A DNA stretch of 64,000 nt from Salinivirgaceae bacterium. Its GTDB lineage: Bacteria; Bacteroidota; Bacteroidia; Bacteroidales; SZUA-534. The notes under the pieces are model-generated. The model saw only the letters and a list, made by a program, of their open reading frames with translations. It did no database searches and was not told the DNA's origin. The stretch spans positions 64,001-128,000 of the forward strand of contig JAKSOL010000001.1 in the NCBI GenBank assembly GCA_024405635.1. The letters are read 5' to 3'. Below are positions 18,401 through 43,077 of this stretch, in pieces; positions within the stretch are counted from its first letter, which is position 1; each line of letters begins with the position of its first letter. Both the position numbers and the translations under genes were made by a program.

Positions 18401-21400
18401 GTGTGGTCGATGGCGGTAAACAATCAAACGGTTCCGATTTTGTTAGTTATGTGTGGAAGTGCGACGGTGCTCAGGTTTCAACAAACCGTAAAATAAACGG
18501 TGTGTCTTTTGCCGATGGAACCGACCGCAAAACTTACACTATTGAAGTACAAAACAGCAACAATTGTATTTCGCGCGACACCATTGTGGTAATCAATTCG
18601 GTGCGTAATATTGGCGTGTCGGCAGTTGAAGGCCTTACCAACAATGGCTCTATTTGTATTAACAAATTAAACAACGAGGTAACCGTTACAATTACCAACT
18701 TCTCAAATCGCGAAGACCTTCGTGTGGGCGAAACATTGGGCGTTGGTTACATTTTGTACGACGAAGAAGGCCACGAACAAAAAACTGTTGAAACGGTTCA
18801 AGTTCCAGGCACAATTGGCTATAACCAAAGTTTCCGATACAAATTCACCAACAAACTGAATTTTATTACCAGCGGAGAGCAAAAGGTAAAATTCTTTACA
18901 GTGGTTGAGGCTGATATTCAGTACGATAACGACACCACAACGCTCAATATGACAGTTAATCCTGTGCCAGTAGTAAACTTGGGCTCTCGTTATTGGCAAG
19001 TAGCCGATCCTACTACCATTACACTCGATGCCACCAACGATTTCCCTTGTACCTACGTTTGGCAAGACGGATCAACCAACCCAACATTAAGTATTACCAA
19101 TCCAGCCTCGGCTCACTATGAAGTACGCGTAACCGATTCGCACAATTGTGCCACAGTTTTAGGTCAAACCGATATTAAAACCGACGATTGGCAAGTGGTT
19201 GAAATTACTTCGCCAACCGATATTTGTGCCCCCGAAAGTGACATTGCAGTGTCGTTTATTTTGAAAAACAATAGTGCCAATGTTTATTCTTCTAGCACCA
19301 CATTAAAAGCCGATGTAATATTTGGAACAAAAAATTTCAGCGAGCAATTTGCTTTGCCTGACAATGTTGGTGCATACGAGGAAATTGAATGCACGTTAAG
19401 TACCACCAAAGTTGATATGTCAAGCATTGGAGCTTATAACATAAAACTCACCATTACTCCAAACTTCGACATCGACCGTACAAACAACCAAATTTTCGAA
19501 ACGGTAAACTTGTGGGAGGTGAAAGACGTTGACCTTGGCGATCCTATAATTTACACTCACCGTGCCGATACCATTACTCTTGATGCAGGCGCAGGTTGGG
19601 CTAGTTATAGTTGGAATGGTGGCCAGTCTGCTGCCCAAACATTTACCATACCTAGCAACGAAGATGCTTCGTATTATGTCGAGGTTGAAGATATTCATGG
19701 TTGTCAGGGCTCTTTTGCACAAGTCGATATTGTTACTACCGATATTTATGTAGAAGAAATTTTGTCGCCAACTACATCGTGCGACATTGCTGGAATTAGC
19801 ACCATTAAATTGCGCATTCGCAACAACGGTATGAGCGCTATTTTGCCAGACACCGAACTGTCTTTTAAATTTACAATTGATAACGGAGTAGAGCAGAGCG
19901 AAACGTTTGTTTTAACCGAAGGCCTTGATTCTTGTGCAACTGCCATTGCCTTTTTCAATCACAACCTTAATCTAAATGCCAACTACGAGCACTCGTTCAA
20001 AATTCGTCTCGATTGGGACGAAGATCACTTCGTTGACAACAACTCGCTATCAACTCAAATTAAGCAATATCAACACCCAGAGTCATTTAACTTGGGCGAC
20101 GATATGTACACTTCTCGCCCCGATACTTTGCATTATTCGTTGCCTAGCGGATATGTAAACTATATGTGGAGTCATGGCGAGCAAACCGCAGACGTTACCT
20201 TGCCATACACCGCTTCAACTCAATATTGGGCGCGTATCAGCAACGAGTATGGCTGCGTTTCAACCGACACATTCAACATTTACACTCACGACGTTGCGCT
20301 TAACATAACTGAAGGTGCAGTTGCACACTGCGAACCTTTTGAAGGTGAAACCGTTAAAGGCCAAATTGTAATGGAGTCGCTTGACGAAATTGACGAAACA
20401 ACATCCTTTATTGTAACCTTTAGTGTAAATGGCTACACCGATAGCAAGACTATTACAGCTCCTAGTATTTCGCACACCGAGCCAGTTGACTTTAGTTTTG
20501 ATGTGCCAATAACCTTACCTGAAATTGGCAACTACCAATTAACCACAAGCGTTGAAATGCTTGGTCATCGCGACGTTAACCTTGCAAACAATAACCAAGA
20601 GTCGGAAGTGCGAGTTGGCGCTTACCCTTTACCATTGCTCGATAAGGTTAAAACATACAACCAACTATCAGAAGGCTACGTAATTGATGCAGGTCCTAAT
20701 TTCGTAAGTTTCGATTGGAGTGTTAGCGGTGAACACTCGCAACAACTAACCATCCACGAAACAGGAACATACAGCGTTACAGCAACCGACAATAATGGTT
20801 GCCAAACAACAGGCAAAACTTTTGTGTTCTTTGCCGAACCAAAATTCGAGATAACCGACCTTTATCAGTTTAACGACATGTGTAGCACAACCGACCCAGT
20901 TTCGGTTGGTTTCTTGCTGGCAAACTCGGGTAACGACACATTGTATGTTGGTAGCAAAATAGACATTGCATATACCATTGGCGCAAATGCTACAATTAAC
21001 GAGCAATATGAAGTAACTACCGATATCTTACCAAAAGACACAATTCCTGTAGTGTTTAAAACTAAAGCCGATTTTAGCACCGCAAACGAAAGTGGCTATT
21101 TGGTTAATATCGAAGCATCGGTTGAGGGCGCAGCAAGCGTTTCGCGACCTGTTATGATTCACGTTTGGCAACTCCCTAAAGTTGAACTCATTGAGGTGGT
21201 TAACGACAAAGATGGCGAACTCCTAACTCGTAACGTATCAACATTGAAATCAAGTTTCGAAATGGGAACCTCAGGAGTGTTTAACACCTATTTGTGGAGC
21301 AATAAATCAACCGGACAAACTCTAACCGTTGACAAAAGCGGCACTTATTGGGTTACTGCAACCAACCAACATGGATGTAGAGCTGCCGATACCGTTGACC

Positions 21401-22236
21401 TCCACTTTATTCCTCCAACTGTGGCCATTATCGATATGAAAGCACCAAACTCGGTTTGTGGCAGCATCGACAACCAAACAGTAAGCGTGGTTATTATGAA
21501 CAATGGCGAAAAAGTTGTTGATGCTGGAACCGACATCCATCTACATTACATTGTTGACAAGTATGCCGATGTTTCAGAAGACTTGACTCTTAAATCCGAT
21601 TTTGTTTATGGTGCAAGCATAAACTACGACTTTAAAAATAAACTAACCATTGCCGAATCGGGCGACTATGCAGTCAAATTCATCTTAACAATAGGCGACG
21701 AAACAAAAGATACAAGCATATACAACTTGAGCGCTTATCCAGTGCCTGAATTTACTTTCCCACATGCCGAAATTAAGTCGAAAGAGTCTCCTTACACCAT
21801 TGAGGCCCCAAAATCGGCAGTTTCCGACGTGGCTTACCTTTGGAGCACTGGAGCAACATCAAACAGCATAAGTGTATTTGGCTCTGGTAAATACGAACTT
21901 ACACTTACCACTCCACAAGGATGTAGCTTTACAAGTTCGGTGTCGTTTGTTTTAGAAAACAACCAAGGCATTGACGACGATAACATTTCAGAAGTGCAAA
22001 TTCAAATGGTGAAACTATATCCAGTACCTGCGCGAAACTTGCTTAACGTAAATTTGCCACATCAATTGCAAGGTTCAAACTTGGTAATAATGAATTCAGC
22101 AGGAATGGTTATTAGCAAAATTGATGCAGCTGAAATGGTAAATACTATTGACGTTAGCAATTGGGCTCAAGGCGTTTACTTCTTGAATTTGGAAAACAAC
22201 CAAGGTTCAGCAACATTCAAATTCATTGTTCAATAA
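15451..22236 (+). CDS. Very large T9SS type-A cargo surface protein (2261 aa, adhesin-like multi-domain)
   Basis: Signal peptide ending SA-Q, jelly-roll modules (FQEDFE...IDDIKI), repeated Ig/CARDB-like units and LDAG..Y.W repeats. C-terminal sorting domain LYPVPARNLLNV...GVYFL. Confidence 0.88.
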   Translation: MKKFFLSVLMLATIGVSAQTVFFQEDFENGGSRPDGWTEEYVSNGNEHLSWTYQNGGTKPAGAYAEPIPSSAHGGNYNAFFYRRSLGYTQETYLVSPTIDLEFAHKPMLVFYYSLMASQLTIEDKADCFTFSLCYRVLDGTSKKWVELKEYSDMTTEMYPWRGDSIYLPDTLCKYRQVQIAFLGKTKVMGLGVCIDDIKIIETQVVNKYIENVYASQPNVNVVPTGSKDNPVLRLRFPVMGNDNKLMLQKLTVNALMQTKDAVPANGVKIYHTTTEYFSTNTLLGTASIVNGKAVFNNINYDLPYGNSYVWVACDVKQDNNHELKGYNIDFSVDANAIAINGINYPSSELNPTGQRTINESILINDFEESIAGWTFTGEFEWSEAKGLGSGSTGAKDPSYAHSGKKMIGTDISGLGTYPGDYELGIEGAGYKAVTPELNCYHYKDISLMFYRWFNVSFGDSATIDVSLDNGTTWNPLWENAVYISERDWSFHKISLGKFADRAPSVKLRFTLGPTGELMHLSGWNIDDVAVVGTFVYVDAAVTAINSPIDDCGLSSAEEVSVTIKNTGYSNISSSYKVSYSLDGKDWVTETVNHPLVRDEEFVYTFSKKADFSALGNHNLTVRVELPDDEYAKNDEVSTVIRSIPYFELPYAEEFEENDGYWRNIGNSTTWQYGRPTGDNISSAYKSNKCWFTKPANGYEANNVVYLESPCFNFSNVQRPMMSFAITGHSIENQDGVAVYYTTDNGRTWTLLPAGVEYSKLHWYNKSTNISALGSSGFSGTFGWTYIEQLLPVELAGKSAVKFRIMFATGAAKTTTQKIENGDGEEDDEYVDVIVPYDGFAIDNFKVFECPVDAGVLAITSPTSDCYLSKQQQISVSIKNYGIRAITPADTLSAAVELGSKVFHQKFFASTNIPVGQSATFTFDTTFNMYDKKTYNIVAYTELYGDTLLFSTINNDQATAQVSVLGEPAYTLGPDIGTLDPATCVVDGGKQSNGSDFVSYVWKCDGAQVSTNRKINGVSFADGTDRKTYTIEVQNSNNCISRDTIVVINSVRNIGVSAVEGLTNNGSICINKLNNEVTVTITNFSNREDLRVGETLGVGYILYDEEGHEQKTVETVQVPGTIGYNQSFRYKFTNKLNFITSGEQKVKFFTVVEADIQYDNDTTTLNMTVNPVPVVNLGSRYWQVADPTTITLDATNDFPCTYVWQDGSTNPTLSITNPASAHYEVRVTDSHNCATVLGQTDIKTDDWQVVEITSPTDICAPESDIAVSFILKNNSANVYSSSTTLKADVIFGTKNFSEQFALPDNVGAYEEIECTLSTTKVDMSSIGAYNIKLTITPNFDIDRTNNQIFETVNLWEVKDVDLGDPIIYTHRADTITLDAGAGWASYSWNGGQSAAQTFTIPSNEDASYYVEVEDIHGCQGSFAQVDIVTTDIYVEEILSPTTSCDIAGISTIKLRIRNNGMSAILPDTELSFKFTIDNGVEQSETFVLTEGLDSCATAIAFFNHNLNLNANYEHSFKIRLDWDEDHFVDNNSLSTQIKQYQHPESFNLGDDMYTSRPDTLHYSLPSGYVNYMWSHGEQTADVTLPYTASTQYWARISNEYGCVSTDTFNIYTHDVALNITEGAVAHCEPFEGETVKGQIVMESLDEIDETTSFIVTFSVNGYTDSKTITAPSISHTEPVDFSFDVPITLPEIGNYQLTTSVEMLGHRDVNLANNNQESEVRVGAYPLPLLDKVKTYNQLSEGYVIDAGPNFVSFDWSVSGEHSQQLTIHETGTYSVTATDNNGCQTTGKTFVFFAEPKFEITDLYQFNDMCSTTDPVSVGFLLANSGNDTLYVGSKIDIAYTIGANATINEQYEVTTDILPKDTIPVVFKTKADFSTANESGYLVNIEASVEGAASVSRPVMIHVWQLPKVELIEVVNDKDGELLTRNVSTLKSSFEMGTSGVFNTYLWSNKSTGQTLTVDKSGTYWVTATNQHGCRAADTVDLHFIPPTVAIIDMKAPNSVCGSIDNQTVSVVIMNNGEKVVDAGTDIHLHYIVDKYADVSEDLTLKSDFVYGASINYDFKNKLTIAESGDYAVKFILTIGDETKDTSIYNLSAYPVPEFTFPHAEIKSKESPYTIEAPKSAVSDVAYLWSTGATSNSISVFGSGKYELTLTTPQGCSFTSSVSFVLENNQGIDDDNISEVQIQMVKLYPVPARNLLNVNLPHQLQGSNLVIMNSAGMVISKIDAAEMVNTIDVSNWAQGVYFLNLENNQGSATFKFIVQ

Positions 22237-33167: not shown

Positions 33168-33823
33168 AAAAACTATTGTTAATAATATCGGCATTGGTTG
33201 CTTCAACCTTTGCTAATGCCCAAGTTGATGAAGGTCGTCAACTGCTCGATAAAGTGGCGCAAAAGGCTAACAGCTACAAGAATATTTGCGCCGATTTTGT
33301 TTATGATTATGAGAATTTGGCCGAAGAAAAAACTGAAAGCCAACAAGGTACCTTGCTAATTAAGGGTAAAAAATTCCATATCGATTTTGAAGGTACAAGC
33401 ATTTTTAGCGATGGAAAAAGTCGTTGGGTTTACCTTAAAGAAAGCAACGAGGTTACCATTACCAAAATTGAAACCAAAGAATCGGACACTCCTGAAGATA
33501 GATTGCTAAGCGACCCAATGTCGTTGTTCTCATATCATAAAAATGGGTTCAAATATTTGTTGGTAGGTACCGAAATGGTTGCTGGCAAACAAATGCAAGT
33601 GGCTGAAATATCGCCAATTAACAAAAATCAAAAACTATTTAAGGTTAAGTATTGGATTGATGCAAACAACAACCTTTATCAAATAAAGTGTTTTCAAAAA
33701 GACGGAACACGCATCACTTTAACGCTAAATAACATGAAGGTGAATCAAAAAGTTGAGGATTCAAATTGCACCTTCAATGTGAGCCAATATCCTGATGTTG
33801 AGGTGATTGATATGCGCGACTAA
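33164..33823 (+). CDS. lolA: Outer membrane lipoprotein carrier LolA-like
   Basis: Overlaps the ftsK stop. GTLLIKGKKF, FSDGKSRWVY, NEVTI and C-terminal VIDMRD. Confidence 0.85.
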   Translation: MKKLLLIISALVASTFANAQVDEGRQLLDKVAQKANSYKNICADFVYDYENLAEEKTESQQGTLLIKGKKFHIDFEGTSIFSDGKSRWVYLKESNEVTITKIETKESDTPEDRLLSDPMSLFSYHKNGFKYLLVGTEMVAGKQMQVAEISPINKNQKLFKVKYWIDANNNLYQIKCFQKDGTRITLTLNNMKVNQKVEDSNCTFNVSQYPDVEVIDMRD

Positions 33824-34419
33824 ACGTTGTGTCCATTGTCGCGGCGAATATCGTCAATCCATTTTTCAATTACTGGCGCTTTGTAACTTTTAAGTAAAGC
33901 AAACACCTCTTGTGGGGTATTTGCAAATAGGGCCATTGCCGAGTGCGGCTCAAGCAACATTTTGCTGCTAACCATGTGATTTAGTTGCTGTTGCAAATAA
34001 CTGTAATAGTTTAGTGTATTGAGAAATACAACAGGTTTTTTGTGAAATCCAAGTTGAGCAGCGGTAAGTACTTCAAAAGTTTCTTCTAATGTTCCAAAAC
34101 CACCAGGCATTATTACAAAAGCATCGGCCAATTCTGCCATTTTTGCTTTGCGCTCTTGCATAGTTTCAACCACAATAAGTTCTTTTAGTCCTTGTTGGGT
34201 TAAGTGTTTTTGGGCTAAAAAGGTAGTTATAACGCCCGTAACTTCGGCACCACCTTGTATGGCTGCCTCGGCACAACAACGCATTAAACCCACATTGGCA
34301 CCGCCATAAATCATGCCAAAACCTTGTTTGGCAATAAGTTGTCCCAACTCGGTAGCTACCTTAGCATACTCGGGTTTGTCGCCCAAATTTGAACTACAAA
34401 ACACACAAACGTTGTACAT
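33820..34419 (-). CDS. LOG family (TIGR00730) Rossmann-fold phosphoribohydrolase
   Basis: VCVFCSS, YGGANVGLM, MQERKAKM and PGGFGTLEE motifs. Confidence 0.95.
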   Translation of the reverse strand: MYNVCVFCSSNLGDKPEYAKVATELGQLIAKQGFGMIYGGANVGLMRCCAEAAIQGGAEVTGVITTFLAQKHLTQQGLKELIVVETMQERKAKMAELADAFVIMPGGFGTLEETFEVLTAAQLGFHKKPVVFLNTLNYYSYLQQQLNHMVSSKMLLEPHSAMALFANTPQEVFALLKSYKAPVIEKWIDDIRRDNGHNV

Positions 34420-34462
34420 AGTTTCATGTTGATGATGTTTTTGCAAAGGAACGAAAAAGATG
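34410..34462 (+). repeat. Left 53-bp direct repeat bounding the Rhs island (includes LOG start codon and upstream region)
   Basis: cgttgtacatagtttcatgttgatgatgtttttgcaaaggaacgaaaaagatg; 51/53 identical to 41303-41355. Confidence 0.92.
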
Positions 34463-34574: not shown

Positions 34575-35855
34575 ATGCGACTCACAAAAGAGACTACTGG
34601 CAGCCAGTCAATAGCATATACCTACGACAGTTATAACCGCATCACAAAAAAGTCATACGTAATTGATGGCACAACCCTGAATTTTACCTATACTTACAAC
34701 TCCAACGGGCAACTATCTTCAAAAACATTCCCCGACGGCATGACCGAAAACTACACATACGATAGCTACGGCAACCTATCATGCATTAAGATGGGCTCAA
34801 CCCGTGTGTGGGAGCTTGATAGCTACAATGGTACAACACGCTCGGCATATCTCGGCACGGCACCTTTGACGCATACAAAAAGCTATTCAACTAAAGGATT
34901 GCTCACAGGCACCTCAATAAAAAACGGCAGCACAACGCTCCACAGCTTTAGCTACACCATTGATGGCACCACAGGCAACCTTACTGCACGCACTGGCATG
35001 AACGGCTCTGAGAGTTTCACCTACGACCAGTTTGACCGACTTACAAACGCAAAGGTTGGCAGTACCGACAATAAGGTAACTTACAAGTTAACTGGCAACA
35101 TAAACAGCAAAACTAGCTTAGGCACATACTCCTACGATGCCACCAAGAAGCATGCCGTAACTAACATTGCTAACCTTAAGCCAACCAACCAAACCGTAAC
35201 CTACAACGCATTCAACAAGGTGGCTAAAGTGGAAACCAACAGTGCCACGCTAACCATAACCTACGGCCCCAACAGGCAACGGGTTAAAACCTACTACACA
35301 ACCAGTGGTGTAACCCAAACCACGCTCTATGCCGATAACTACGAGCAGCGCACCGTAAACGGTACCGTGAGCACCTACCACTACGTGAGCAGTCCCGACG
35401 GACTGGTGGCAATATACGTAAAGAAAGGCACGGCGGCAATGACTCCCTATTACGTTGAGACCTACCACCTCGGCAGTATCTGCAAGATATACAACGCCGC
35501 AGGCACCAAGCAGTTTGATGCCACCTATGACGCATGGGGCAAGCAAACCGTAAACGTCAACTACATAGGCATAACCCGCGGCTACACTGGCCACGAGCAC
35601 TGGAACCAGTTTGGCTTGATAGACATGAACGGCAGGTTTTATGACCCAGTAGTAGGCCGTTTCCTCAGCCCCGACCCTTACGTGCAAGACCCCACCAACC
35701 TGCAGAACTTTAACCGCTACTCGTATTGCTTAAACAACCCACTGAAGTATAATGACCCGAGCGGGGAATGGATATTGACATGGGGTATTAATAAAGGAGG
35801 ATTTAGTATTGGCTTGAATTTCGCGCCATATCCTGTTGGCTTTGGAATCCAATAG
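34575..35855 (+). CDS. Rhs/YD-repeat protein fragment with Rhs-associated core; no N-terminal region, truncated tip
   Basis: YTYDSYNR-type repeats, [31 protein letters not shown] and [19 protein letters not shown]; only 28 residues follow the core. Confidence 0.9.
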   Translation: MRLTKETTGSQSIAYTYDSYNRITKKSYVIDGTTLNFTYTYNSNGQLSSKTFPDGMTENYTYDSYGNLSCIKMGSTRVWELDSYNGTTRSAYLGTAPLTHTKSYSTKGLLTGTSIKNGSTTLHSFSYTIDGTTGNLTARTGMNGSESFTYDQFDRLTNAKVGSTDNKVTYKLTGNINSKTSLGTYSYDATKKHAVTNIANLKPTNQTVTYNAFNKVAKVETNSATLTITYGPNRQRVKTYYTTSGVTQTTLYADNYEQRTVNGTVSTYHYVSSPDGLVAIYVKKGTAAMTPYYVETYHLGSICKIYNAAGTKQFDATYDAWGKQTVNVNYIGITRGYTGHEHWNQFGLIDMNGRFYDPVVGRFLSPDPYVQDPTNLQNFNRYSYCLNNPLKYNDPSGEWILTWGINKGGFSIGLNFAPYPVGFGIQ

Positions 35856-35918
35856 GCGGTCACATGCGCGGACCAACCTCTTTCCTAAAAATTGGTTCAA
35901 TCTTTTAACCTCACAGAA

Positions 35919-36533
35919 ATGAAAAATATATTGCTATTATTAATAATGTTAGTAAGTTTTTCTGTTCAATCTCAAGATTGCGAATCTGCATTTATTGAAA
36001 GATTTACAAAGGCTTACACCAAAAATCAGAAATGGTTAAACAAGAAAGCTAAGAAAATATACCGCAATCATGGTAATGCTGATAGTGATAGCGTTAGCTT
36101 TATATTTGAAGTTGAAGTCTGGGCTAGTAAATTTAAAGAATGCGATTACAATCCAGATATTGTTCTTTGTAAAATAGATTATTGGAACAAGAGATATACA
36201 TATGCATTAGTATTTAAGGATACTCATTTTAAGGGTATAATAGATATTTTTGATGAAGTTTATCACGATAGTGCTTTTGTTAATACATACTTCAAAGCAC
36301 ATTATAAACTATTTGAAGAGCTAAGGAATAATAAAATCGATTTGGCTTTCGACATCAATGGATTTGGAGGAAATTGTTATTGGTATATTGCAAATGAAAA
36401 ATTATTTGTGTTGGCTCATTCTGAAAACGATAATGGCTACAAAATATATAATGCAAGTTCATATATGCACACTGTATATGACCCTCTAATGGCTCTTTTC
36501 GGAAGAAACAAGCGATTTAAAACGAAATACTAA
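35919..36533 (+). CDS. Putative immunity protein 1 (Sec signal peptide)
   Basis: MKNILLLLIMLVSFSVQS-Q; AT-rich; directly downstream of the Rhs tip. Confidence 0.65.
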   Translation: MKNILLLLIMLVSFSVQSQDCESAFIERFTKAYTKNQKWLNKKAKKIYRNHGNADSDSVSFIFEVEVWASKFKECDYNPDIVLCKIDYWNKRYTYALVFKDTHFKGIIDIFDEVYHDSAFVNTYFKAHYKLFEELRNNKIDLAFDINGFGGNCYWYIANEKLFVLAHSENDNGYKIYNASSYMHTVYDPLMALFGRNKRFKTKY

Positions 36534-36539
36534 CGATAA

Positions 36540-36584
36540 TGAACTATACATGCACCTTTGGGAGTGTGTATAGTTCAATTTTTT
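36540..36584 (+). terminator. Intrinsic terminator after cassette 1
   Basis: tgaactataca...tgtatagttca 11-bp stem plus T run. Confidence 0.75.
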
Positions 36585-36587
36585 AAA

Positions 36588-37823
36588 ATGATATCAGTTA
36601 CAAGCATCTCATATTTTCAAGAGCAAGACTCAACCACAACCTCATACTACGTTGAAACCGACCATCTTGGCAGCATCTGCAAAATATACGATGCCGCAGG
36701 CTCCAAGCAATACGACGCTACCTACGATGCATGGGGCAAGCAGACAGTTAATTACAACACGCTTGGCCTCACCCGAGGCTACTGCGCCCACGAGCATTGG
36801 AACCAGTTTGGCTTGATAGACATGAACGGCCGTTTCCTCAGCCCCGACCCATACGTACAAGACCCCACCAACCTGCAGAACTTTAACCGCTACTCGTATT
36901 GCCTAAACAACCCACTGAAGTATAATGACCCGAGCGGGGAGTCTGCCGTATTGACTGCCGCAATTATAGGCGCAGTTGTTGGAACATATATAGGTGGAAT
37001 AATGGCAAACAACACATACAATCCTATTAAATGGAACTATAACGAACTCAAAACATGGGGCTATATGGGCGGTGGTGCAATAGTTGGTGCAGCTAGCGGT
37101 GCGGCGGGTGCCTACGTAGGAAGCACCGTAGGAGGTTATTTTGCAGGGTCAAGTTTTGTAGCAGGAGCGGCATCGGGCGCAGCGGCTGGAGCAGTTAGCG
37201 GCACTATTTCAGGAGCTGGGTATTCTTGGCTTAATGGAGCCTCTTTTAGACAAGGTGTTTGGAAAGGCTTTATTGGTGGCAATGTTGGTGGGCTAACTGG
37301 CGGTGTAATGGGAGGCTTGGCTGGAGGCATATCAGCATATAACAATGATTGCAATTTCTGGAATGGCAAACCAAACACATTGTTAGATGAAATAGATTAC
37401 AATCTTCCATTTTGCCCAAATGAAGGTAGTAATGATTGTTTTGTAAAATCGGCCGAAGCTATTGAGAGCAAATTTGCCGAAAACCCTAGAACTTCTACAC
37501 AATTAAGAACTAGTATTGGGAAGACAAAAAATGAATTGGTTAGTGTTGAGGATATGCAAAACAAAGCTGGATACAGGTTTACTACAACAAAGGACCGCTG
37601 TCAAGCATTTGAAAAGCTAAAAAATGGAAAACTATCTTTTCATGCAACAGATTGGGGAGACGGCACTGGACATATGACAGCTGTTAATAAAATGCAAATG
37701 TGGCAACGAGCAAACGGTAAATTATATTTCCGATTATTTACTATGGATTCTGCAAAAGGACAATATTCAAGAACATTAATAAATCGCTTTTACTTCGTTG
37801 AAGCCATCAGCCGAAACTTTTAA
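36588..37823 (+). CDS. Orphan Rhs core, Gly-rich linker and papain/C39-like peptidase toxin tip
   Basis: Homology to cassette 1 begins near 36644 (YYVETDHLGS). NDPSGE core end. Tip with DC...GHMTAV...MDS. The 5' end is uncertain. Confidence 0.8.
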   Translation: MISVTSISYFQEQDSTTTSYYVETDHLGSICKIYDAAGSKQYDATYDAWGKQTVNYNTLGLTRGYCAHEHWNQFGLIDMNGRFLSPDPYVQDPTNLQNFNRYSYCLNNPLKYNDPSGESAVLTAAIIGAVVGTYIGGIMANNTYNPIKWNYNELKTWGYMGGGAIVGAASGAAGAYVGSTVGGYFAGSSFVAGAASGAAAGAVSGTISGAGYSWLNGASFRQGVWKGFIGGNVGGLTGGVMGGLAGGISAYNNDCNFWNGKPNTLLDEIDYNLPFCPNEGSNDCFVKSAEAIESKFAENPRTSTQLRTSIGKTKNELVSVEDMQNKAGYRFTTTKDRCQAFEKLKNGKLSFHATDWGDGTGHMTAVNKMQMWQRANGKLYFRLFTMDSAKGQYSRTLINRFYFVEAISRNF

Positions 37824-37835
37824 TAACAGCTTACC

Positions 37836-38507
37836 ATGAAAAAAATTATAAATCTAATAGTCTGCATGTTTGCTATTACTTGTAATGCTCAAAAAATTAA
37901 ATACACTGAACGCGATATAGCAATAATTGACTCTTTGGCGAAAAAGGCTTTCGAAAAATGTATAACTAAAAACCAAATACAATCGATAGAAAAAATAGAC
38001 CGTTCTTTATTTGAAGGATCCAAATTAATAGCAATACCTACTTGTAAAATACACAATGAACAATATTGGGTTATTGACACCTCACATGTTCCTTATTTGT
38101 CATTAATAATGAAAGATGAATCTTGCATTGGTGTTGTTAGTTCTGACGATTGTAACAATAGTTATATTGATGTAAACTATTGCTACAAAAAGAATTTAGG
38201 GGGTTGTTCTAATGTTGGTCATATGGTAAATATTATTACCAATACAAAAGATAGTTTGATATTCAGCCTAAGAGGAACTGATGATAAAATACTTTTTATG
38301 TATAATCAAGACGAAATCAAATATGTTGATATAGTTGCCGATTATATTGAAAATGAAGAAGTATATAATTCAGTTTCATTTGATATTAGAATGGTATCAT
38401 TTAAATCATTAGATCAAATATCAAATTGTGGATTGCCAACAAGAGAAAAAAAGAAAAATTCAAAAAAGAATTTGCGACATCCACTAGAGAGTATTCTCTA
38501 CGATTAA
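37836..38507 (+). CDS. Putative immunity protein 2 (Sec signal peptide)
   Basis: MKKIINLIVCMFAITCNA-Q; 12 nt after the toxin stop. Confidence 0.65.
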   Translation: MKKIINLIVCMFAITCNAQKIKYTERDIAIIDSLAKKAFEKCITKNQIQSIEKIDRSLFEGSKLIAIPTCKIHNEQYWVIDTSHVPYLSLIMKDESCIGVVSSDDCNNSYIDVNYCYKKNLGGCSNVGHMVNIITNTKDSLIFSLRGTDDKILFMYNQDEIKYVDIVADYIENEEVYNSVSFDIRMVSFKSLDQISNCGLPTREKKKNSKKNLRHPLESILYD

Positions 38508-38525
38508 CGAGTTAGTTCATTTTAT

Positions 38526-38561
38526 TAAGCCGCAAGCGGAGTAATTTCTGCTTGCGGCTTA
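38526..38561. repeat. Inverted-repeat hairpin at the end of cassette 2 (second copy at 41229-41260)
   Basis: taagccgcaagc...gcttgcggctta perfect 12-bp stem. Confidence 0.8.
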
Positions 38562-39808
38562 TTACTAAAAAACAACTTTTGAATATAACTTACACATATA
38601 ACTACAAGCAAACCGTAAACGTTAACTACATTGGCATAACCCGCGGCTACACAGGCCACGAGCACTGGAACCAGTTTGGTCTTATTGACATGAATTTTGC
38701 GATTGAGCGAGAGCAGAGTGAATATGTGGTAACATATTCAGCTATGCCGAGCGTGAGCAAAATGGGCGAAGCCAACTTCGGCCGTTTCTACGACCCAGTA
38801 GTAGGCCGCTTTCTCAGTCCCGACCCTTACGTGCAAGACCCAAGCAACCCGCAGAACTTCAACCGCTACTCGTATTGCTTAAATAACCCGCTGAAGTATA
38901 ATGACCCTAGTGGGGAATCTGCCGTATTGACGGCCGCAATTATAGGCGCAGTTATTGGAACATATATAGGAGGAACAATGGCAAACAACACTTATAATCC
39001 CATTAAATGGAACTATAGCGAACTCAAAACATGGGGATACATGGGCGGAGGTGCAATAGTTGGTGCGGCTAGCGGTGCAGCTGGTGCCTATGTTGGAAGC
39101 ACCGTAGGAGGTTATTTTGCCAGTTCGAGTTTCGTTGCAGGATCTGCTTCGGGCGCAGCTGCTGGTGCCGTTGGTGGTACAATTTCAGGAGCTGGATATT
39201 CTTGGCTAGATGGAGCCTCTTTTAAACAAGGTGCTTGGAAAGGTTTTGTTAGCGGTAATGTTGGTGCTCTTACTGGCGGCTTGCTTGGTGGAATCGTTGG
39301 TGGCATTGATGCATATTGCGACGGCCGAAATGCGTGGACAGGCAAAGAAGTTGCCATGGGACGATCAAGGTTGGCTTTTAACAATACAGATTTGCTTGCA
39401 AACAAATACCAAGTTGGGCCAGGAGAAGTGCGAAATGCAAATTATATAAATGAAGAAATGGCGAGCTCCAATCCAAAATATGACTATGCCAAATATGGTA
39501 AAGTTGATAAAAATGGCTTATCAACTGGTACTATTTCAAAGTACCAAAATTACACAATGGAAAGTAGAGAATATGAAGTGTTTCAGAATTTTAAAGGCAG
39601 GGCTTATTTGGAAGTAAAAAGCACAGGTACATTTGATGTTTCATTCAGTTTAGATGGTAAAATTATTACACCAGATTCAAATGGATTATTCCACTTACCC
39701 CAAGGATGTAAATTACTGCAAATAAATATGATTAGGTCAGAAACTTCATCTATGATAAATGCGGTTTCACCTCTTAGATTTACAATTCAAGGCTACTCAA
39801 TTCCTTAA
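38552..39808 (+). CDS. Orphan Rhs core with 28-aa in-frame insert, Gly-rich linker and unknown toxin tip
   Basis: [20 protein letters not shown] identical to cassette 1; NDPSGE; linker nearly identical to cassette 2. No credible start codon, since the ORF start lies inside the hairpin. Confidence 0.8.
38695..38778. mobile_element. 84-bp structured, frame-preserving insertion element in the Rhs core
   Basis: Absent from the two paralogous cores (atgaa|cggc). Nested inverted repeats ttttgc/gcaaaa, tgaatatgt/acatattca and ggc-gaa-gcc. Confidence 0.75.
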
Positions 39809-39822
39809 ATAAGTGTTTAAAA

Positions 39823-40512
39823 ATGAACAATTTTATATACGCAAAGAACATACTTGTAAGTTTGTTCTTGTTACTTCCATTTTTTTCAATGTCACAATCA
39901 GATGAAATTGGTTGGGCAATATTCAATTATCCCCAAAATATTACGATTAACGGGGCAAAATACACATATCATTATGCAAATGGTGATGAGGCAGAAACAG
40001 ATTCGTTACTTTATGAACCAAACGAATATTTTAAGTTCTTTCCTAAAAATCATAAACTTAATGAATTGGACACTATGGATTTTGTGTATGGTTCAAGGAA
40101 AGTTCATAAAGTTTACGGGAAGAAAATTCAGTACAATAAGCAACATGATTATGTGTCATTTTTATCTTGGAACGAAGGCACTGAATACCTACTAATTACG
40201 TTTAAAGAGAAGGATTTGTTTATTGAATATTGCGATTCAACCATTAAGTCACCTAATAGCATTGCGATGGTAAAAAGAATGAATAAAGTTAGAAGTGTTA
40301 TTGTAAAGAGTAAGATTAAAAAAATAGAGAAACTAAGCCACAACATTGAGTACAATGCTGAATCTATTTCCACTCCCCCTATAGTTTTTGAATTGAAAAT
40401 TGGAGATAATTACAAGATATTACCCATTCTAACCTTAGACGCGCCAAAAGCATTTAAAAAATCATATAGTTTGTACAAAAGGCTAATAAATAATGCAAAA
40501 AAAGGCATATGA
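39823..40512 (+). CDS. Putative immunity protein 3 (Sec signal peptide)
   Basis: Hydrophobic N-terminus ending SMS-Q; 14 nt after the toxin stop. Confidence 0.65.
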   Translation: MNNFIYAKNILVSLFLLLPFFSMSQSDEIGWAIFNYPQNITINGAKYTYHYANGDEAETDSLLYEPNEYFKFFPKNHKLNELDTMDFVYGSRKVHKVYGKKIQYNKQHDYVSFLSWNEGTEYLLITFKEKDLFIEYCDSTIKSPNSIAMVKRMNKVRSVIVKSKIKKIEKLSHNIEYNAESISTPPIVFELKIGDNYKILPILTLDAPKAFKKSYSLYKRLINNAKKGI

Positions 40513-41355: not shown

Positions 41356-41463
41356 TCTGCAAAGACAATAAACAATAGCATTGCATCGTAAAAGTAAGTG
41401 CTATTTTATACCTTTGGAAACTATGCTAAAAAAGCATCACCACGAATTAATTTGATAAATAAA

Positions 41464-43077
41464 ATGATACGTAAGTTATTCGCTATTACTTGTTTGGCTT
41501 TTGTTGGGCTAGCAACATCTGCGCAAAATACCTTTAGTGTGCAGAACTACAAGATGAGCCGAGTGCTAACTTTAATCGACCATTTGTATGTTGACACCGT
41601 TGACGATGCAAAGATTGTTGAGGCTGGCATCGTTGCAATGCTCAAAGAACTTGACCCTCATTCGATATATGTTTCGCCCGACGAGGTAAAAGAAATGAAC
41701 GAACCGCTTGAGGGTAATTTTGAAGGCATAGGCATTCAGTTTAGCATTATTAACGATACACTGATGGCGGTAGGTATTATTCCCGGTGGCCCTTCGGAGC
41801 GGGTTGGACTAATGGCTGGCGACCGTATTCTGTATATCGACTCGACAAATGTTGCTGGAGTTGGAATAACAAACAACGATGTTTTTAAAAAGCTACGTGG
41901 CAAAAAAGGAACAAAGGTTACGGTAAAAATTCAGCGTCATGGTTCGCCCGAGTTGCTCGAATTTACCATCACTCGCGACAAAATTCCAATCTATAGTGTT
42001 GATGCATCGTATGTTATCGACAAAAAAGAAAAGATAGGATATGTTAAAGTGAACAAGTTTGCTGCAACAACAACCGACGAATATACCAAGGCAATGGAAA
42101 AATTGCGCAAGGCTGGTGTTCGTAATCTGATTCTTGACCTTACTGACAATGGTGGAGGTTTCTTAAATTCAGGTTTTGACCTTGCTAGTCAATTCTTAAA
42201 CGATGGACAAATGGTAGTTTATACCGATGGAGTTAAACAACCACGTCAAGATTACAGAGCGCGTGGCAAAAAAAGTTTGGACTACGATAGAGTTGTAGTA
42301 ATGGTTGACGAGGGGTCGGCATCGGCAAGCGAAATTGTAACTGGTGCTCTTCAAGATTGGGACCGTGCTGTGGTTGTTGGTCGTCGCACTTTTGGTAAGG
42401 GATTGGTACAAAATCAGTTCCCGCTAACCGATGGGTCAATGATTCGACTTACAGTTGCTCGCTATTACACACCAACAGGTCGTTGCATTCAGCGTCCATA
42501 TTCGGCAGGCGTTGATCAGTACGAGCAAGATTTTATTGACCGTTACAACAATGGCGAACTTAATAGTGCCGATTCAATTCATCTGCCAACTTCTGAAATT
42601 TATTATACACTTAATAGTCATCGTCCGGTGTACGGCGGTGGTGGCATTATACCCGACATTTTTGTGCCTATCGATACAACTTATTATTCAGACTATTATG
42701 CAAGAATGATTCGTAGCGGCATATTTAATCGCTTTGTTATTGAGTATATCGACACTCATCGCGACTCGCTTGAACGTGTTTACAAAAGCACAAAAACCGA
42801 TGCCGATTTTGACAAGTTTAATGCAAAGTTTGAGGTTACCGATGCTTTGCTGCAAGAATTGATTGATTATGCAGCAAAAAATAAACTTGAGTACGTTGAT
42901 GCTGATTTTGCTCGTAGTAAAGAGTATATCCGTTTTTACTTAAAGGCGGCAATTTCGCGCGATTTGTACGATAGTGGAGAGTTTTACCAAATTTATAATT
43001 TGCATAACCCAATTTTTAAAGAGGCTGTAAGAGTTATTAAAGACGTTGATTTGTATAACTCAAAATTGGCAAAGTAA
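41464..43077 (+). CDS. S41 family carboxyl-terminal processing protease (CtpA/Prc-like)
   Basis: LDPHS, PDZ GIGI, ILDLTDNGGG, SASASEI, TFGKGLVQ and ARYYTPTGR motifs. tacctttg promoter element at 41409-41416. Confidence 0.95.
   Translation: MIRKLFAITCLAFVGLATSAQNTFSVQNYKMSRVLTLIDHLYVDTVDDAKIVEAGIVAMLKELDPHSIYVSPDEVKEMNEPLEGNFEGIGIQFSIINDTLMAVGIIPGGPSERVGLMAGDRILYIDSTNVAGVGITNNDVFKKLRGKKGTKVTVKIQRHGSPELLEFTITRDKIPIYSVDASYVIDKKEKIGYVKVNKFAATTTDEYTKAMEKLRKAGVRNLILDLTDNGGGFLNSGFDLASQFLNDGQMVVYTDGVKQPRQDYRARGKKSLDYDRVVVMVDEGSASASEIVTGALQDWDRAVVVGRRTFGKGLVQNQFPLTDGSMIRLTVARYYTPTGRCIQRPYSAGVDQYEQDFIDRYNNGELNSADSIHLPTSEIYYTLNSHRPVYGGGGIIPDIFVPIDTTYYSDYYARMIRSGIFNRFVIEYIDTHRDSLERVYKSTKTDADFDKFNAKFEVTDALLQELIDYAAKNKLEYVDADFARSKEYIRFYLKAAISRDLYDSGEFYQIYNLHNPIFKEAVRVIKDVDLYNSKLAK

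Follow-up and report, generated by a model that had tools for sequence, protein, structure and literature searches.

Rickettsia palindromic elements (RPEs) are elements of about 150 bp that occupy many unrelated genes as well as intergenic DNA, and their in-frame copies are reported to be translated into peptide segments (PMC10969869). MITEs (Correia, ERIC, BOX) are reported to lie occasionally within genes or to give in-frame fusions (PMC10969869), and the REP/RAYT (REPIN) tag is a conserved GTAG or CGTC at the foot of the palindrome (PMC3733652). We analyzed a 64,000-nt stretch of a Salinivirgaceae genome, hereafter the window, in which an insert in an Rhs cassette is one copy of a widespread structured small-repeat family of Bacteroidota.

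Like the RPEs, the family is small, palindromic, sometimes in frame in coding genes and also intergenic; it differs from them in its unit of about 73 nt, its occurrence in Bacteroidota, a canonical length that is not a multiple of three, and in-gene copies found all at one Rhs junction, in orphan-sized ORFs only. REP/BIME sequences resemble it as short structured extragenic repeats present in tens to hundreds of copies in either orientation, with convergent genes favored over divergent ones (8 vs 2 in the present family), clusters, mosaics with other repeats and a pairing strand bias. The present unit is longer, however, and has conserved internal loops; a Y1 transposase was detected in only two of five high-copy genomes, and in the alignment read by eye the unit carries GTAG or CGTC at neither foot. 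MITEs are likewise non-autonomous, multi-copy and structured; in this family, by contrast, the inverted ends amount to a 6-bp outer stem with the tail outside it, no parent IS was identified, and no target-site duplication accompanies the Rhs site. Shared with IS200/IS605-type elements (HUH, single-strand transposition) and their palindromic derivatives are the lack of target duplication, the hairpins and the strand asymmetry, and insertion 3' of a short motif (..TG^AA) is conceivable; unlike them, the family has one long hairpin plus an unrelated 3-bp mini-hairpin instead of similar subterminal hairpins, its left-flank motif varies among copies, and the enzyme is not consistently present.

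Integron attC sites have boxes with the consensus RYYYAAC/GTTRRRY. Such R'/R'' boxes were not seen by eye in the family, whose copies are scattered on mixed strands rather than one per cassette and form no cassette arrays, and the integron route raised in an initial interpretation of this DNA made from its letters alone (the sequence-only reading) was not supported. rAID-1 and integron-like repeats (10.1101/471110 and PMC12247911) were considered and set aside on array context: the Paraprevotella clara locus with a family copy (L073) is not a small-ORF array, and within-genome matches are not array-like. The family is therefore probably distinct from the rAID-1 repeats, in a comparison that covered array context.

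The insert in Rhs cassette 3 and its fold

Alignment of the three Rhs cassettes of the window (Table 1) revealed 84 extra nucleotides in cassette 3, directly after ATGAA, where cassettes 1 and 2 have uninterrupted GACATGAA|CGG junctions (after 35629 and after 36826, respectively). The sequence-only reading had proposed an 84-bp insert at ATGAA|CGG, stop-free and without evident target duplication. The cassette alignment and an empty contig showed its coordinates to be right to the base; the insert consists of 28 codons without a stop, and comparison of filled with empty alleles in the window and at the L009 locus revealed no target duplication beyond an ambiguous AA. The unit shared with other family copies is 81 nt long in the window copy (38693-38773, AATTTTGCG...GAAGCC); the window sub-lineage has three more bases between this unit and GGC, and Asn codons stand on either side of it (AAT...AAC).

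The empty contig, an independent sequence from an RNA library of another study, joins 38694 straight to 38779 and skips exactly 84 nt. This joint, the flanking Asn codons and a strong hairpin that begins at the take-off side would be in keeping with an element that is spliced out of the RNA in some way, or bypassed by ribosomes that hop from AAT to AAC, giving a protein as if from an empty gene. However, 24 of 322 downstream bases of the contig disagree with the window, and it runs upstream into different core sequence; it is therefore another, empty allele. It is also the sole contig without the 84 nt, and the excision or splicing suggested earlier was not supported. Given also that no Rfam ribozyme or intron was matched, that copies of the family face either way relative to genes and that orphans lack the N-terminal Rhs shell anyway, such removal is very improbable. 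Window stretches without cover in runs X2-X4 were left out of the evidence.

Cassette 3 comprises about 45 core codons 5' of the insert, followed by the remaining core, DPSGE and a C-terminal domain without family match. TIGR03696 scored 67.9, 37.7 and 47.3 bits in cassettes 1, 2 and 3 (curated cut-off 32.5). Its profile positions 1-75 fall at residues 318-397 in cassette 1, and cassette 2 also carries a 24-nt in-frame deletion; cassette 3, whose domain is split by the insert, matches only at positions 34-75, downstream of it. The 229-aa ORF behind cassette 3 had no match in a Pfam search and is, by its position, a putative immunity gene, and like-placed ORFs follow cassettes 1 and 2 (35892..36533 and 37836..38507). 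No recombinase gene, tyrosine recombinases and integrases included, was found near the array.

Table 1. Features of the insert and of the Rhs cassette array, in window coordinates
Feature	Coordinates	Strand	Basis
Rhs cassette 1: 5'-truncated core (YD repeats, full TIGR03696), short C-terminal region, empty site	34575..35855	+	
Rhs orphan cassette 2: short core fragment and C-terminal domain, empty site	36558..37823	+	alignment, TIGR03696
GC-rich inverted repeat, terminator-like (inferred function), at upstream end of cassette 3	38529..38558	+	between preceding ORF and cassette 3
Rhs orphan cassette 3, insert carrier	38552..39808	+	TIGR03696
Family unit aligned to other copies, AATTTTGCG...GGCGAAGCC	38693..38773	+	covariance model R1, 81 bits, E 3e-15
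Bases missing from empty alleles	38695..38778	+	cassette alignment and contig joint 38694->38779
Outer stem, 5' half TTTTGC	38695..38700	+	pairs with GCAAAA 38757-38762; covaries in divergent members
Conserved 5' internal-loop block GATTGAGCGAGAGCA (family consensus GATTAAGCGAGnGCA)	38701..38715	+	alignment
Apical hairpin, perfect 9-bp stem, loop GGTA	38719..38740	+	fold and covariation
Conserved 3' block GCCGAGCGTGAGC and 3' half of outer stem	38746..38762	+	alignment
Tail mini-hairpin GGC-GAA-GCC, GGCGAAGCC	38765..38773	+	alignment and covariation
229-aa ORF directly 3' of cassette 3, putative cognate immunity gene	39823..40512	+	position

DNA folding of 38685-38790 gave -22.7 kcal/mol, compared with -11.02 +/- 2.3 kcal/mol for 200 shuffles (z -5.08, none as good); for the RNA fold of the same interval, z was -3.20 and one shuffle was equally good. 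All the stems named in the sequence-only reading were present, in a fold well beyond those of the shuffles. Of its two tandem GA/GA mismatches, one was found as a tandem G.A/A.G, and the other is a single A.G according to the family-wide pairing. A K-turn in the first internal loop was rejected: most copies have A in place of the G with which its tandem G.A would begin, and its bulge would measure 4 nt. In the apical stem, TGAATATGT (38719-38727) pairs with ACATATTCA (38732-38740); this hairpin, where the family varies and covaries, is 8 nt longer in the window copy than in the canonical unit. The tail mini-hairpin combines a variable stem, in which 3/3 helix-3 pairs have changed on both sides, with a loop that is mostly C-GAA-G, and the invariant AAA-ATG-GGC is present in the window sub-lineage. 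The 3' block and the 3' half of the outer stem are identical in 4/4 DNA copies of this sub-lineage, synonymous positions included, and the last 31 nt at the 3' end are invariant in the same four.

A structured repeat family of Bacteroidota

Canonical copies measure 73 nt. Their outer stem encloses two conserved internal-loop blocks and an apical hairpin that covaries, and a tail mini-hairpin follows. A pattern scan for the 5' end matched at least 119 loci, which ruled out an insert without relatives, and the 3' block was also present in 68 of 123 pattern matches, 47 of them unique among the matches listed. When the whole 96-mer or the 3' block served as query, nothing beyond the Rhs-resident sub-lineage was found, owing to its special tail and long hairpin. 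A covariance model (R1) was built from 46 copies, including the window copy and its relatives L006, L007 and L008. The window copy scored 81 bits (E 3.2e-15, model positions 1-77), a match that is partly by construction since the copy is a training row, and the three relatives, training rows too, scored 72-79 bits. The window copy has the blocks GATTrAGCGAGnGCA and GCCGAGCGTGAGC in the right order, with the hairpin between them. R1 gave 97 matches in 77 loci, and 16 of 151 sampled genomes of the order had a match. In five high-copy genomes R1 copies numbered at least 41, at least 29, at least 95, at least 51 and at least 24, and the Segatella copri genome holds at least 95 family copies.

Pairing was found in 88.7% of cells across the family alignment, compared with 28-46% when partners were slid, and both-side changes occupied 85 cells vs 31.2 in shuffles, a value reached by none of 500 shuffles; covariation of the outer stem was seen in divergent members. 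The small non-autonomous element postulated in the sequence-only reading is borne out, with many relatives among the pattern loci and R1 matches: other copies exist, the stems covary, and the insert is not the end of a known IS. G.T pairs exceed A.C pairs (82 vs 16), which suggests that a single strand folds, as it does in elements processed in single-stranded form.

Most copies are intergenic: for 42 of the 47 unique copies (among the matches listed), no open frame of at least 300 aa runs across the copy; a long open frame over the L035 copy was discarded as spurious, being an R/P/G-rich frame in GC-rich DNA. Copy orientation relative to genes was same/same in 22 cases and opposite/opposite in 19, with 8 convergent vs 2 divergent. 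Within high-copy genomes the copies are scattered over both strands, and tandem arrays are frequent, including head-to-tail arrays without spacer and mosaics with other repeats. Tracts of heptamer repeats surround intergenic copies; the 7-bp target duplication that they suggested did not appear at the Rhs site and was rejected.

A 19-mer of the 3' block had no match among viral contigs, and plasmid and phage searches returned one record each, neither annotated. Rfam 15 gave five weak matches (E up to 10) in window positions 38300-39100, all below gathering thresholds and none over the insert; in 15 loci with canonical copies its sole matches were Bacteroidales-1 and one tRNA, both of them away from the elements. 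A literature search that included literal sequence strings, with supplementary repeat catalogues outside its range, found neither the family nor inserts at the Rhs motif described. The family is apparently unnamed and undescribed in Rfam 15 and the literature searched, although it is a high-copy structured repeat and its phylum is dominant in gut microbiomes. Assembly and gene calling are affected by repeats of this kind, as may be mRNA stability and recombination.

Recurrence at one Rhs junction

Copies were found at the same junction, in the same orientation, at 10 DNA loci from eight genomes (the window, L005, L007/L009, L008, L050, L130, L131, L133, L134 and L135). In each case the copy separates ATG from AAY within the stretch of the Rhs core-coding region that specifies the (D/N)-M-N|G/A-R motif. 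In addition, 18 database proteins, all of 67-631 aa, have inserts of 24-28 aa between M(N/S/K) and GR. Similar inserts at this motif, which the sequence-only reading had suggested for other Bacteroidales, occur both there and in Dysgonomonadaceae-type genomes. No reverse-orientation copy was found at a GR-type site. The Rhs-site searches included the Rhs flank, leaving insertions elsewhere in Rhs genes invisible to them, and the protein searches detect in-frame copies only.

At least two length and hairpin classes occur at this site: Dysgonomonadaceae-type genomes have the 73-nt form, gut Bacteroidales the 81/84-nt form, and the protein matches added forms of 72, 75 and 78 nt. Frame preservation, thought at first to be a property of the element, is no family trait: 73-nt copies at the Rhs site (L050, L130, L134, L135) shift the frame, and some contain a stop. 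The 81/84-nt lineage is in frame in 4/4 DNA copies, and this open frame, together with the 18 proteins that read through the insert, would suit an adaptive peptide loop of 27-28 residues conserved for function. Such a loop is scarcely credible, however, as synonymous sites of the 3' block are conserved like the others, amino-acid changes concentrate where the DNA hairpin covaries, some variants translate a shared DNA block as YAERE... rather than LPSVSK..., having a different frame there, the 73-nt copies shift the frame, and the insert was not seen in any full-length-size protein. Gene callers translate in-frame copies as 24-28-residue Rhs 'loops', which annotators and structure modellers should treat as repeat-derived.

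The element is restricted to orphan-size ORFs. All filled ORFs are of 631 aa or less (10 DNA loci and 18 proteins), 16/16 full-length-size Rhs matches were empty, and a further scoring found 0/20 long candidates filled. Presence/absence alleles occur side by side: at the L009 locus the full-length main gene is empty and the adjoining orphan filled, and the flanks of the empty P0043 (2095 aa) are almost the same as those of the filled P0016 (500 aa). Most orphan cassettes, including window cassettes 1 and 2, are without the element.

Its constant position at the boundary region of orphan cassettes may suggest that it has a function in the Rhs cassettes, serving as a recombination handle or crossover barrier that sets where orphan cassettes are joined to the main gene, as a lock against translation of orphan toxins, or as an internal start (at the invariant AAA-ATG-GGC). 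Rhs homology stops within or right after the element at L005, L131 and L133, an unrelated ORF at L131 begins at the element's ATG, and the invariance of the 3' 31 nt would fit such a role. This is improbable all the same, considering that the bulk of the family lies between genes, with no relation to Rhs, that most orphan cassettes do without a copy, that the array has no recombinase gene nearby, that no promoter-like box was read by eye in the element, and that the internal ATG is missing from other Rhs-site variants (e.g. ...SKISEAN). Bacteroides-type promoter boxes read TTTG and TAnnTTTG; on both strands, by eye, they were absent save for a flank accident in two copies.

Spread of the element and conservation of its flanks

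We favor, as somewhat better than an even bet, a REP/MITE-like repeat lodged in silent orphan cassettes and spread by homologous recombination and horizontal transfer. One family lineage would have lodged between ATG and AAY of the Rhs motif; the Rhs core region is the homology block for recombination of C-terminal cassettes, and the element would travel with the orphan cassettes, moving among paralogues by gene conversion and among species by horizontal cassette transfer. That it always occupies the same base and orientation would follow from being inherited and spread with cassettes through this block. Orphan cassettes are silent, which would explain its persistence there. In full-length genes a 73-nt copy disrupts the reading frame, and even one that is in frame divides the core domain, which is presumably why these genes remain empty. 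We infer that the insert is neutral and that recombination spread it. Its recurrent lodging at one Rhs codon junction provides a natural marker of orphan toxin cassette exchange, and the sharp similarity break at the element is a handle on conversion tracts in Rhs loci.

Alternatively, a trans-acting enzyme that reads the folded top strand may have inserted the element repeatedly and independently, in a truly site- and orientation-specific manner, a possibility that deserves weight and that we still consider unlikely. The target AAT(N)NNG^AAY would be mimicked by the Rhs (D/N)-M-N codons, and insertions would survive only in silent orphans. Intergenic copies have the left-flank consensus AATTNNG^AA (G at -1 in 36 of 62 flanks, AATT at -7 to -4 in 14 of 62), their last three left-flank bases varying (GTG 7, CAC 7, TTG 6, GCG 5, others), and Rhs junctions read AATATG^AA or GAYATG^AA, i.e. 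(A/G)AT-ATG^AAY. Judged from these flanks, the Rhs junction resembles the usual consensus, and an insertion preference is plausible. Site-specific insertion would also account for several element classes at one site, near-identical elements (72/73) in diverged flanks of one genome, the exact boundaries of presence/absence alleles, spacer-free head-to-tail arrays, the strand bias of G.T over A.C together with the DNA-type C-GAA-G mini-hairpin, and the fact that no reversed copies were found.

On the other hand, the Rhs copies are the sole strong members in four genomes, which hence have no resident donor: the only strong R1 match is the Rhs copy in the window's genome, G041 and G042, and G038 has two R1 matches in all, both at Rhs sites. 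The resident subfamily of G039 has outer stems and tails unlike those of the Rhs copy. No candidate enzyme was found: Y1_Tnp (PF01797) was found in two of the five high-copy genomes, which are incomplete metagenome bins, and not in those with 95+, 51+ and 41+ copies. On this distribution HUH mobilization was set aside as the leading idea, and the ends also lack similar hairpins. Moreover, a low-information target motif is not enough by itself to account for one site within 6 kb of gene, and homologous recombination among Rhs cassettes yields the same site and orientation automatically, so that the recurrence is also explicable without the targeted transposition assumed in the sequence-only reading. 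Should true site specificity of insertion be proved, the element would provide a compact model of how folded DNA recognizes its target.

More speculative, and in our view doubtful, is a single-strand-folding mini-element lineage specialized on one Rhs codon junction, which would home to it in silent toxin cassettes across Bacteroidota, in a site- and orientation-specific manner, and whose interruption or sparing of the frame (73 vs 72-84 nt) would gate the reactivation of orphan toxins. Were this true, a selfish element mobilized by a not-yet-recognized enzyme would be the gatekeeper of a toxin arsenal.

Sub-lineage DNA copies are identical at 72-78 of 81 positions of the element, compared with 93-97 of 121 in the downstream coding flank, and third codon positions are invariant at 22/28 in the element vs 18/40 in the flank. 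The upstream flank of cassette 3 is identical to that of cassette 1 at 83 of 90 positions, and to those of other filled loci at 21-32 of 42. Under spread by homologous recombination, flanks would be homogenized with local empty paralogues up to the insert, the insert itself having no local donor, and the element would consequently look better conserved than its flanks. An element far better conserved than its coding flanks also counts against that reading, as constraint or recent independent insertion predicts the same. So do the two or more length/hairpin classes at one site, for which a single ancestral insertion needs much in-place change, and likewise the target-like junction, the lack of a reversed copy and the G.T bias. 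The L134 and L135 copies, which share one genome, are identical at 72 of 73 element positions; identity then decays with distance from the element, to 18 of 20 positions in the first 20 nt of either flank and 8-14 of 20 farther out.

An 84-nt insert in an array of orphan Rhs cassettes

The insert lies in an array of three Rhs cassettes (see the table below). The RHS repeat-associated core domain TIGR03696 (NCBIfam) was detected in all three, and each is followed by one ORF of 213–229 aa; these ORFs had no match in Pfam and are presumably immunity genes. Searching the assembly by tblastn with cassette 1 as the query returned, besides the three pieces of the array, just one divergent locus, located on contig 34, and no full-length Rhs of the cassette-1 subfamily; the array therefore consists of orphan cassettes. 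The second, divergent locus (C34:16682-29125) holds a long Rhs-like gene broken across several frames, followed by two orphan-like pieces.

Features of the Rhs cassette array (window coordinates)
Feature	Position	Strand	Remark
LOG-family gene	33820..34446	minus	borders the array on one side
Rhs cassette 1	34575..35855	plus	5'-truncated gene with YD repeats
Rhs cassette 2	36558..37823	plus	about 45–70 core codons retained
Rhs cassette 3	38552..39808	plus	about 45–70 core codons retained; holds the insert
Insert	38695..38778		84 nt, junction ATGAA^CGG
S41 peptidase gene	41398..43077		borders the array on the other side

Cassette alignment confirmed the exact, stop-free insert at the Rhs motif described in a sequence-only reading: compared with cassettes 1 and 2, whose junctions are uninterrupted (after 35629 and after 36826, respectively), cassette 3 contains exactly 84 additional bases, or 28 codons, 3' of ATGAA. 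The TIGR03696 match in cassette 3 begins only at profile position 34, and the insert thus splits the core domain. All the stems named in that reading were present, and the strong folding it described was reproduced against shuffled sequences, with z = -5.08 for DNA (0 of 200 shuffles as good) and z = -3.20 for RNA (1 of 200). At window 36819-36850, the codons GRFYDPVV (24 nt) are missing from cassette 2, immediately 3' of its DMN junction and between the two GGCCG/GGCAG...GGCCG repeats coding GRF...GRF. Elsewhere in the window, a 2261-aa ORF (15451-22236) with a T9SS C-terminal sorting domain (Por_Secre_tail), a BNR repeat and a reelin-subrepeat-like segment has no relation to the array.

Contigs of four public sequencing runs were compared with window 38400-39100. 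A 232-nt contig from run X2 (another study) was identical to the filled allele, in which the element is present. A 620-nt contig from run X3, an RNA library from a third study, has one difference over 38605-38694, skips exactly 84 nt, and resumes at 38779-39100 with 24 differences. The suggested excision is not supported, and the contig is no evidence for splicing: its upstream sequence (...QFDATYDAWG...) is unlike that of the window, and it is therefore another, empty-site allele of the same cassette type, with a longer core attached. The comparison shows that close relatives differ by clean gain or loss of the insert.

A family of small structured repeats

A 96-mer query gave a single relative (G027, 84% identical) among 32 other genomes of the host's family and no further copy in the genome of the window itself; a large repeat family emerged from pattern searches. 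A codon-degenerate pattern of the 3' block matched three loci among 185,579 species genomes and one metagenome contig, and these loci, like the G027 relative, all had the element at the same junction, in Rhs fragments. The unit is 81 nt long in loci L007, L008 and L009, to which the window and L005 add one codon before GGC or TGC. Between the window copy, L007 and L008, identity is higher in the element (72–78/81) than in the coding flanks (93–97/121 nt downstream, 21–29/42 nt upstream), and 22 of 28 third codon positions are invariant in the element versus 18 of 40 in the flank. The hairpin apex differs in sequence across three versions with its pairing kept.

Used alone as a pattern, the 5' block (TTTTGCGATnrAGCGAGnGCA) matched at least 119 loci. 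Among the matches listed, the 3' block (at most 4 mismatches in 17) was also present in 68 of 123 (47 unique); the other 55 include Campylobacter loci with a common unrelated coding context and some truncated or divergent members. Going by record titles, the members listed represent Segatella copri, Leyella stercorea, Prevotella, Paraprevotella clara, Alistipes, Muribaculaceae, Bacteroidaceae, Proteiniphilum, Prolixibacteraceae, Mangrovibacterium and others. In 31 of the 47 unique copies listed, the core (TTTTGC...GCAAAA) measures 60 nt; among these matches, a core of 68 nt is confined to the four Rhs copies belonging to the window's sub-lineage. The canonical unit of 73 nt comprises the core, two leading A's and an 11-nt tail.

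A covariance model, R1, built from 46 aligned copies (alignment A2), gave 97 matches in 77 fetched loci and at least 41, 29, 95, 51 and 24 copies in five genomes, these being lower bounds with 150 candidates scored per genome. Under stricter filters, 16 of 151 genomes sampled evenly from the order had a match, including the window's own, and the plasmid and phage collections contained one copy each. Two weak matches in the window's genome, C33:8746-8824 (E 0.03) and C23:33583-33657 (E 0.18), resemble divergent family members, with a covarying outer stem CTTCCG/CGGAAG and blocks GAGAGCAG...TGCCGAG. At a loose end at window 38721, run X1 (a metagenome, probably the window's source) yielded a 94-nt contig with an element-like start followed by a different, canonical-type hairpin; this contig represents a further family member, carried by a different organism of that sample.

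The 25 pairs written for A2 were paired in 88.7% of cells, versus 28–46% with the 3' partners slid by 1–3 columns. Covariation of the stems, for which the sequence-only reading had called, was evident, with changes at both partners in 85 cells, compared with 31.2 on average in shuffles (0 of 500 shuffles reached 85), most compensatory changes falling in the apical hairpin and the tail mini-hairpin; invariance of the 5' block in A2 is uninformative, since the search pattern fixed it. The outer stem covaries in divergent members found with R1 (TTATGC/GCATAA, TTCTGC/GCAGAA, CGTTTC/GAAACG, CTATTTC/GAAATAG), and a C-G pair within the conserved blocks is T-A in some of them. The tail is typically xxC-GAA-Gxx, with GTA, GCA, ATA and GTAA as variants; C-GAA-G mini-hairpins are known for exceptional stability in DNA. 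G.T pairs outnumber A.C pairs by 82 to 16 (two conserved pairs account for 49 of the 82), indicating that the displayed strand is the folding one, as RNA or single-stranded DNA. No Rfam family matched the element.

An open frame of at least 300 aa spans just 5 of the 47 unique copies among the matches listed: two in Rhs, two at most 34 codons from an upstream stop, and one in a GC-rich frame rejected as spurious. Long ORFs flanking 82 unique copies were same/same in 22, opposite/opposite in 19, convergent in 8 and divergent in 2 (31 had no ORF call on one side), which indicates no orientation preference relative to transcription. Some copies form head-to-tail arrays with periods of 77–81 nt, including at least six copies of period 77 nt adjoining a tRNA gene in a Mangrovibacterium bin (L013:1566-2014) and similar triplets at G036:C16:24274-24510 and G037:C1:4656713-4656948. 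The Segatella and Leyella copies are the middle modules of composite repeats about 300 nt long, with a conserved 38-nt hairpin to the left and about 190 conserved nt to the right (L018, L024, L037, L045, L063, L070, L079, L115, L118). Intergenic copies are typically flanked on both sides by short heptamer tracts (AATTGAG, AATTCAC, AATGAAG, ATTAGCG and others, also AATGCTC and AATTTTC; L019, L035, L074, L085, L096, L100, L124) in phase with the element's first seven bases (AATTTTG); these tracts are possibly footprints, binding sites or slippage products. The last seven bases of the left flank tend to AATTNNG: of 62 distinct flanks, 36 have G at -1 and 14 have AATT at -7 to -4. One canonical copy has a Bacteroidales-1 RNA (RF01693, 141 bits; L023:468-638) about 220 nt away.

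Rickettsia palindromic elements are the closest analogue for in-frame residence within genes (PMC10969869), and REP/BIME and MITE families are the closest in genomic behaviour. Compared with RAYT-REP, IS200/IS605 derivatives, classical MITEs and attC sites, the element lacks the hallmarks that were tested, and the enzymology first proposed is not supported; a Y1 HUH transposase domain was detected in two of five high-copy genomes. The copy distribution does not support identity with the 'repetitive intergenic sequences' described for rAID-1 immunity arrays (10.1101/471110). Our literature search found no description of the family or of inserts in the Rhs motif. The family is a small structured repeat of a known kind; what is unusual is that it recurs at a single codon junction within one family of toxin genes.

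Recurrence at the Rhs junction

With a pattern in which the Rhs flank (rAyATG) runs directly into the element start, 10 loci were retrieved, comprising nine Rhs fragments and one chance flank. Alongside the 81/84-nt lineage, a 73-nt lineage occupies the Rhs site in Proteiniphilum (L130, L133), a Fermentimonas bin (L134, L135) and 'Bacteroidia bacterium 43-41' (L050), between ATG and AAY of ...(V/I)NMN^(A/T)RLYD.... Preservation of the reading frame, claimed for the window's copy, does not extend to this lineage: across the element the Rhs frame shifts by +1 from the upstream to the downstream side, and L135 has a stop inside the element in the upstream frame. L133 is truncated within the element, and in L131 Rhs homology stops in the element's tail, and another, unrelated ORF begins at the internal ATG of the element. 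Altogether, three loci (L131:790-900, L133 on the minus strand, and L005:948-1145) lose Rhs homology within the element or directly past it, and the element may be a rearrangement hot spot.

When 58 residues spanning the site were searched, without a profile, against 1.84 billion representative proteins, 36 matches were obtained, 18 of which carry an insert of 24–28 residues between M(N/S/K) and GR. These inserts are translated family members (FAIKRGQ...LPSGSKISEAN), some reading the 3' block in a different frame (...YAERE...), and all 18 proteins are 67–631 aa long. Other loci and these proteins uphold one part of the first interpretation, that the insert is a mini-element, non-autonomous, whose relatives occur at this Rhs motif. 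The Rhs-site searches included the Rhs flank and are blind to the element elsewhere in Rhs genes; in the flank-free 5'-block scan, both in-gene copies among the matches listed were at the Rhs site (L006, L050).

None of 20 candidate proteins of 733–2090 aa scored against the window segment. With the filled segment of P0016 as query, 16 of 182 candidates of 876–2500 aa scored, and all 16 read ...MN-GR/AR... without an insert. The flanks of P0043 (2095 aa, empty) and P0016 (500 aa, filled) are almost identical, and L009 contains, in this order, a 1962-aa Rhs gene whose site is empty, an immunity-sized ORF and the filled orphan. Each word-based search is weak evidence, but they agree that full-length Rhs genes are empty.

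Proposed spread among cassettes

In the window's genome, as in genomes G041 and G042, R1 has just one strong match, the Rhs copy; G038 has just two matches, both at Rhs sites, and G039 has 48, with a resident subfamily whose outer stems and tails are unlike those of its Rhs copy. These patterns argue that Rhs copies were not derived from resident intergenic copies. Targeted, site-specific insertion at the Rhs junction is kept as an alternative: the one site holds several length and hairpin classes, its junction, (A/G)AT-ATG^AAY, is similar to the family's usual AATTNNG^AA flank, and strand-biased pairing and the C-GAA-G mini-hairpin fit single-stranded-DNA handling. No reversed copy at GR-type sites was seen in the three Bacteroidota loci among eight matches of a reversed-orientation pattern, which also speaks for this alternative; these three were neither Rhs nor family members, and the other five matches were, by title, from Proteobacteria.

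Recombination among cassettes is the simplest account of the Rhs copies. One or a few entries of the element into the Rhs core-coding block would have been enough; it would later have been copied and lost by homologous recombination or gene conversion among cassettes, and may have been transferred across species together with them. Such spread would explain the same site and orientation, transposase independence and exact presence/absence alleles, and confinement to silent orphans would be due to selection. Conversion from empty paralogues would homogenise flanks only as far as the heterology, where it halts, so that the element appears older and better kept than its surroundings. The two Rhs-site elements of G038 are identical at 72 of 73 positions, as are 18 of the 20 adjacent nt on each side, falling to 8–14/20 farther out. 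Upstream of the insert, cassette 3 is much closer to empty cassette 1 (83 of 90 positions identical) than to the other filled loci (21–32 of 42).
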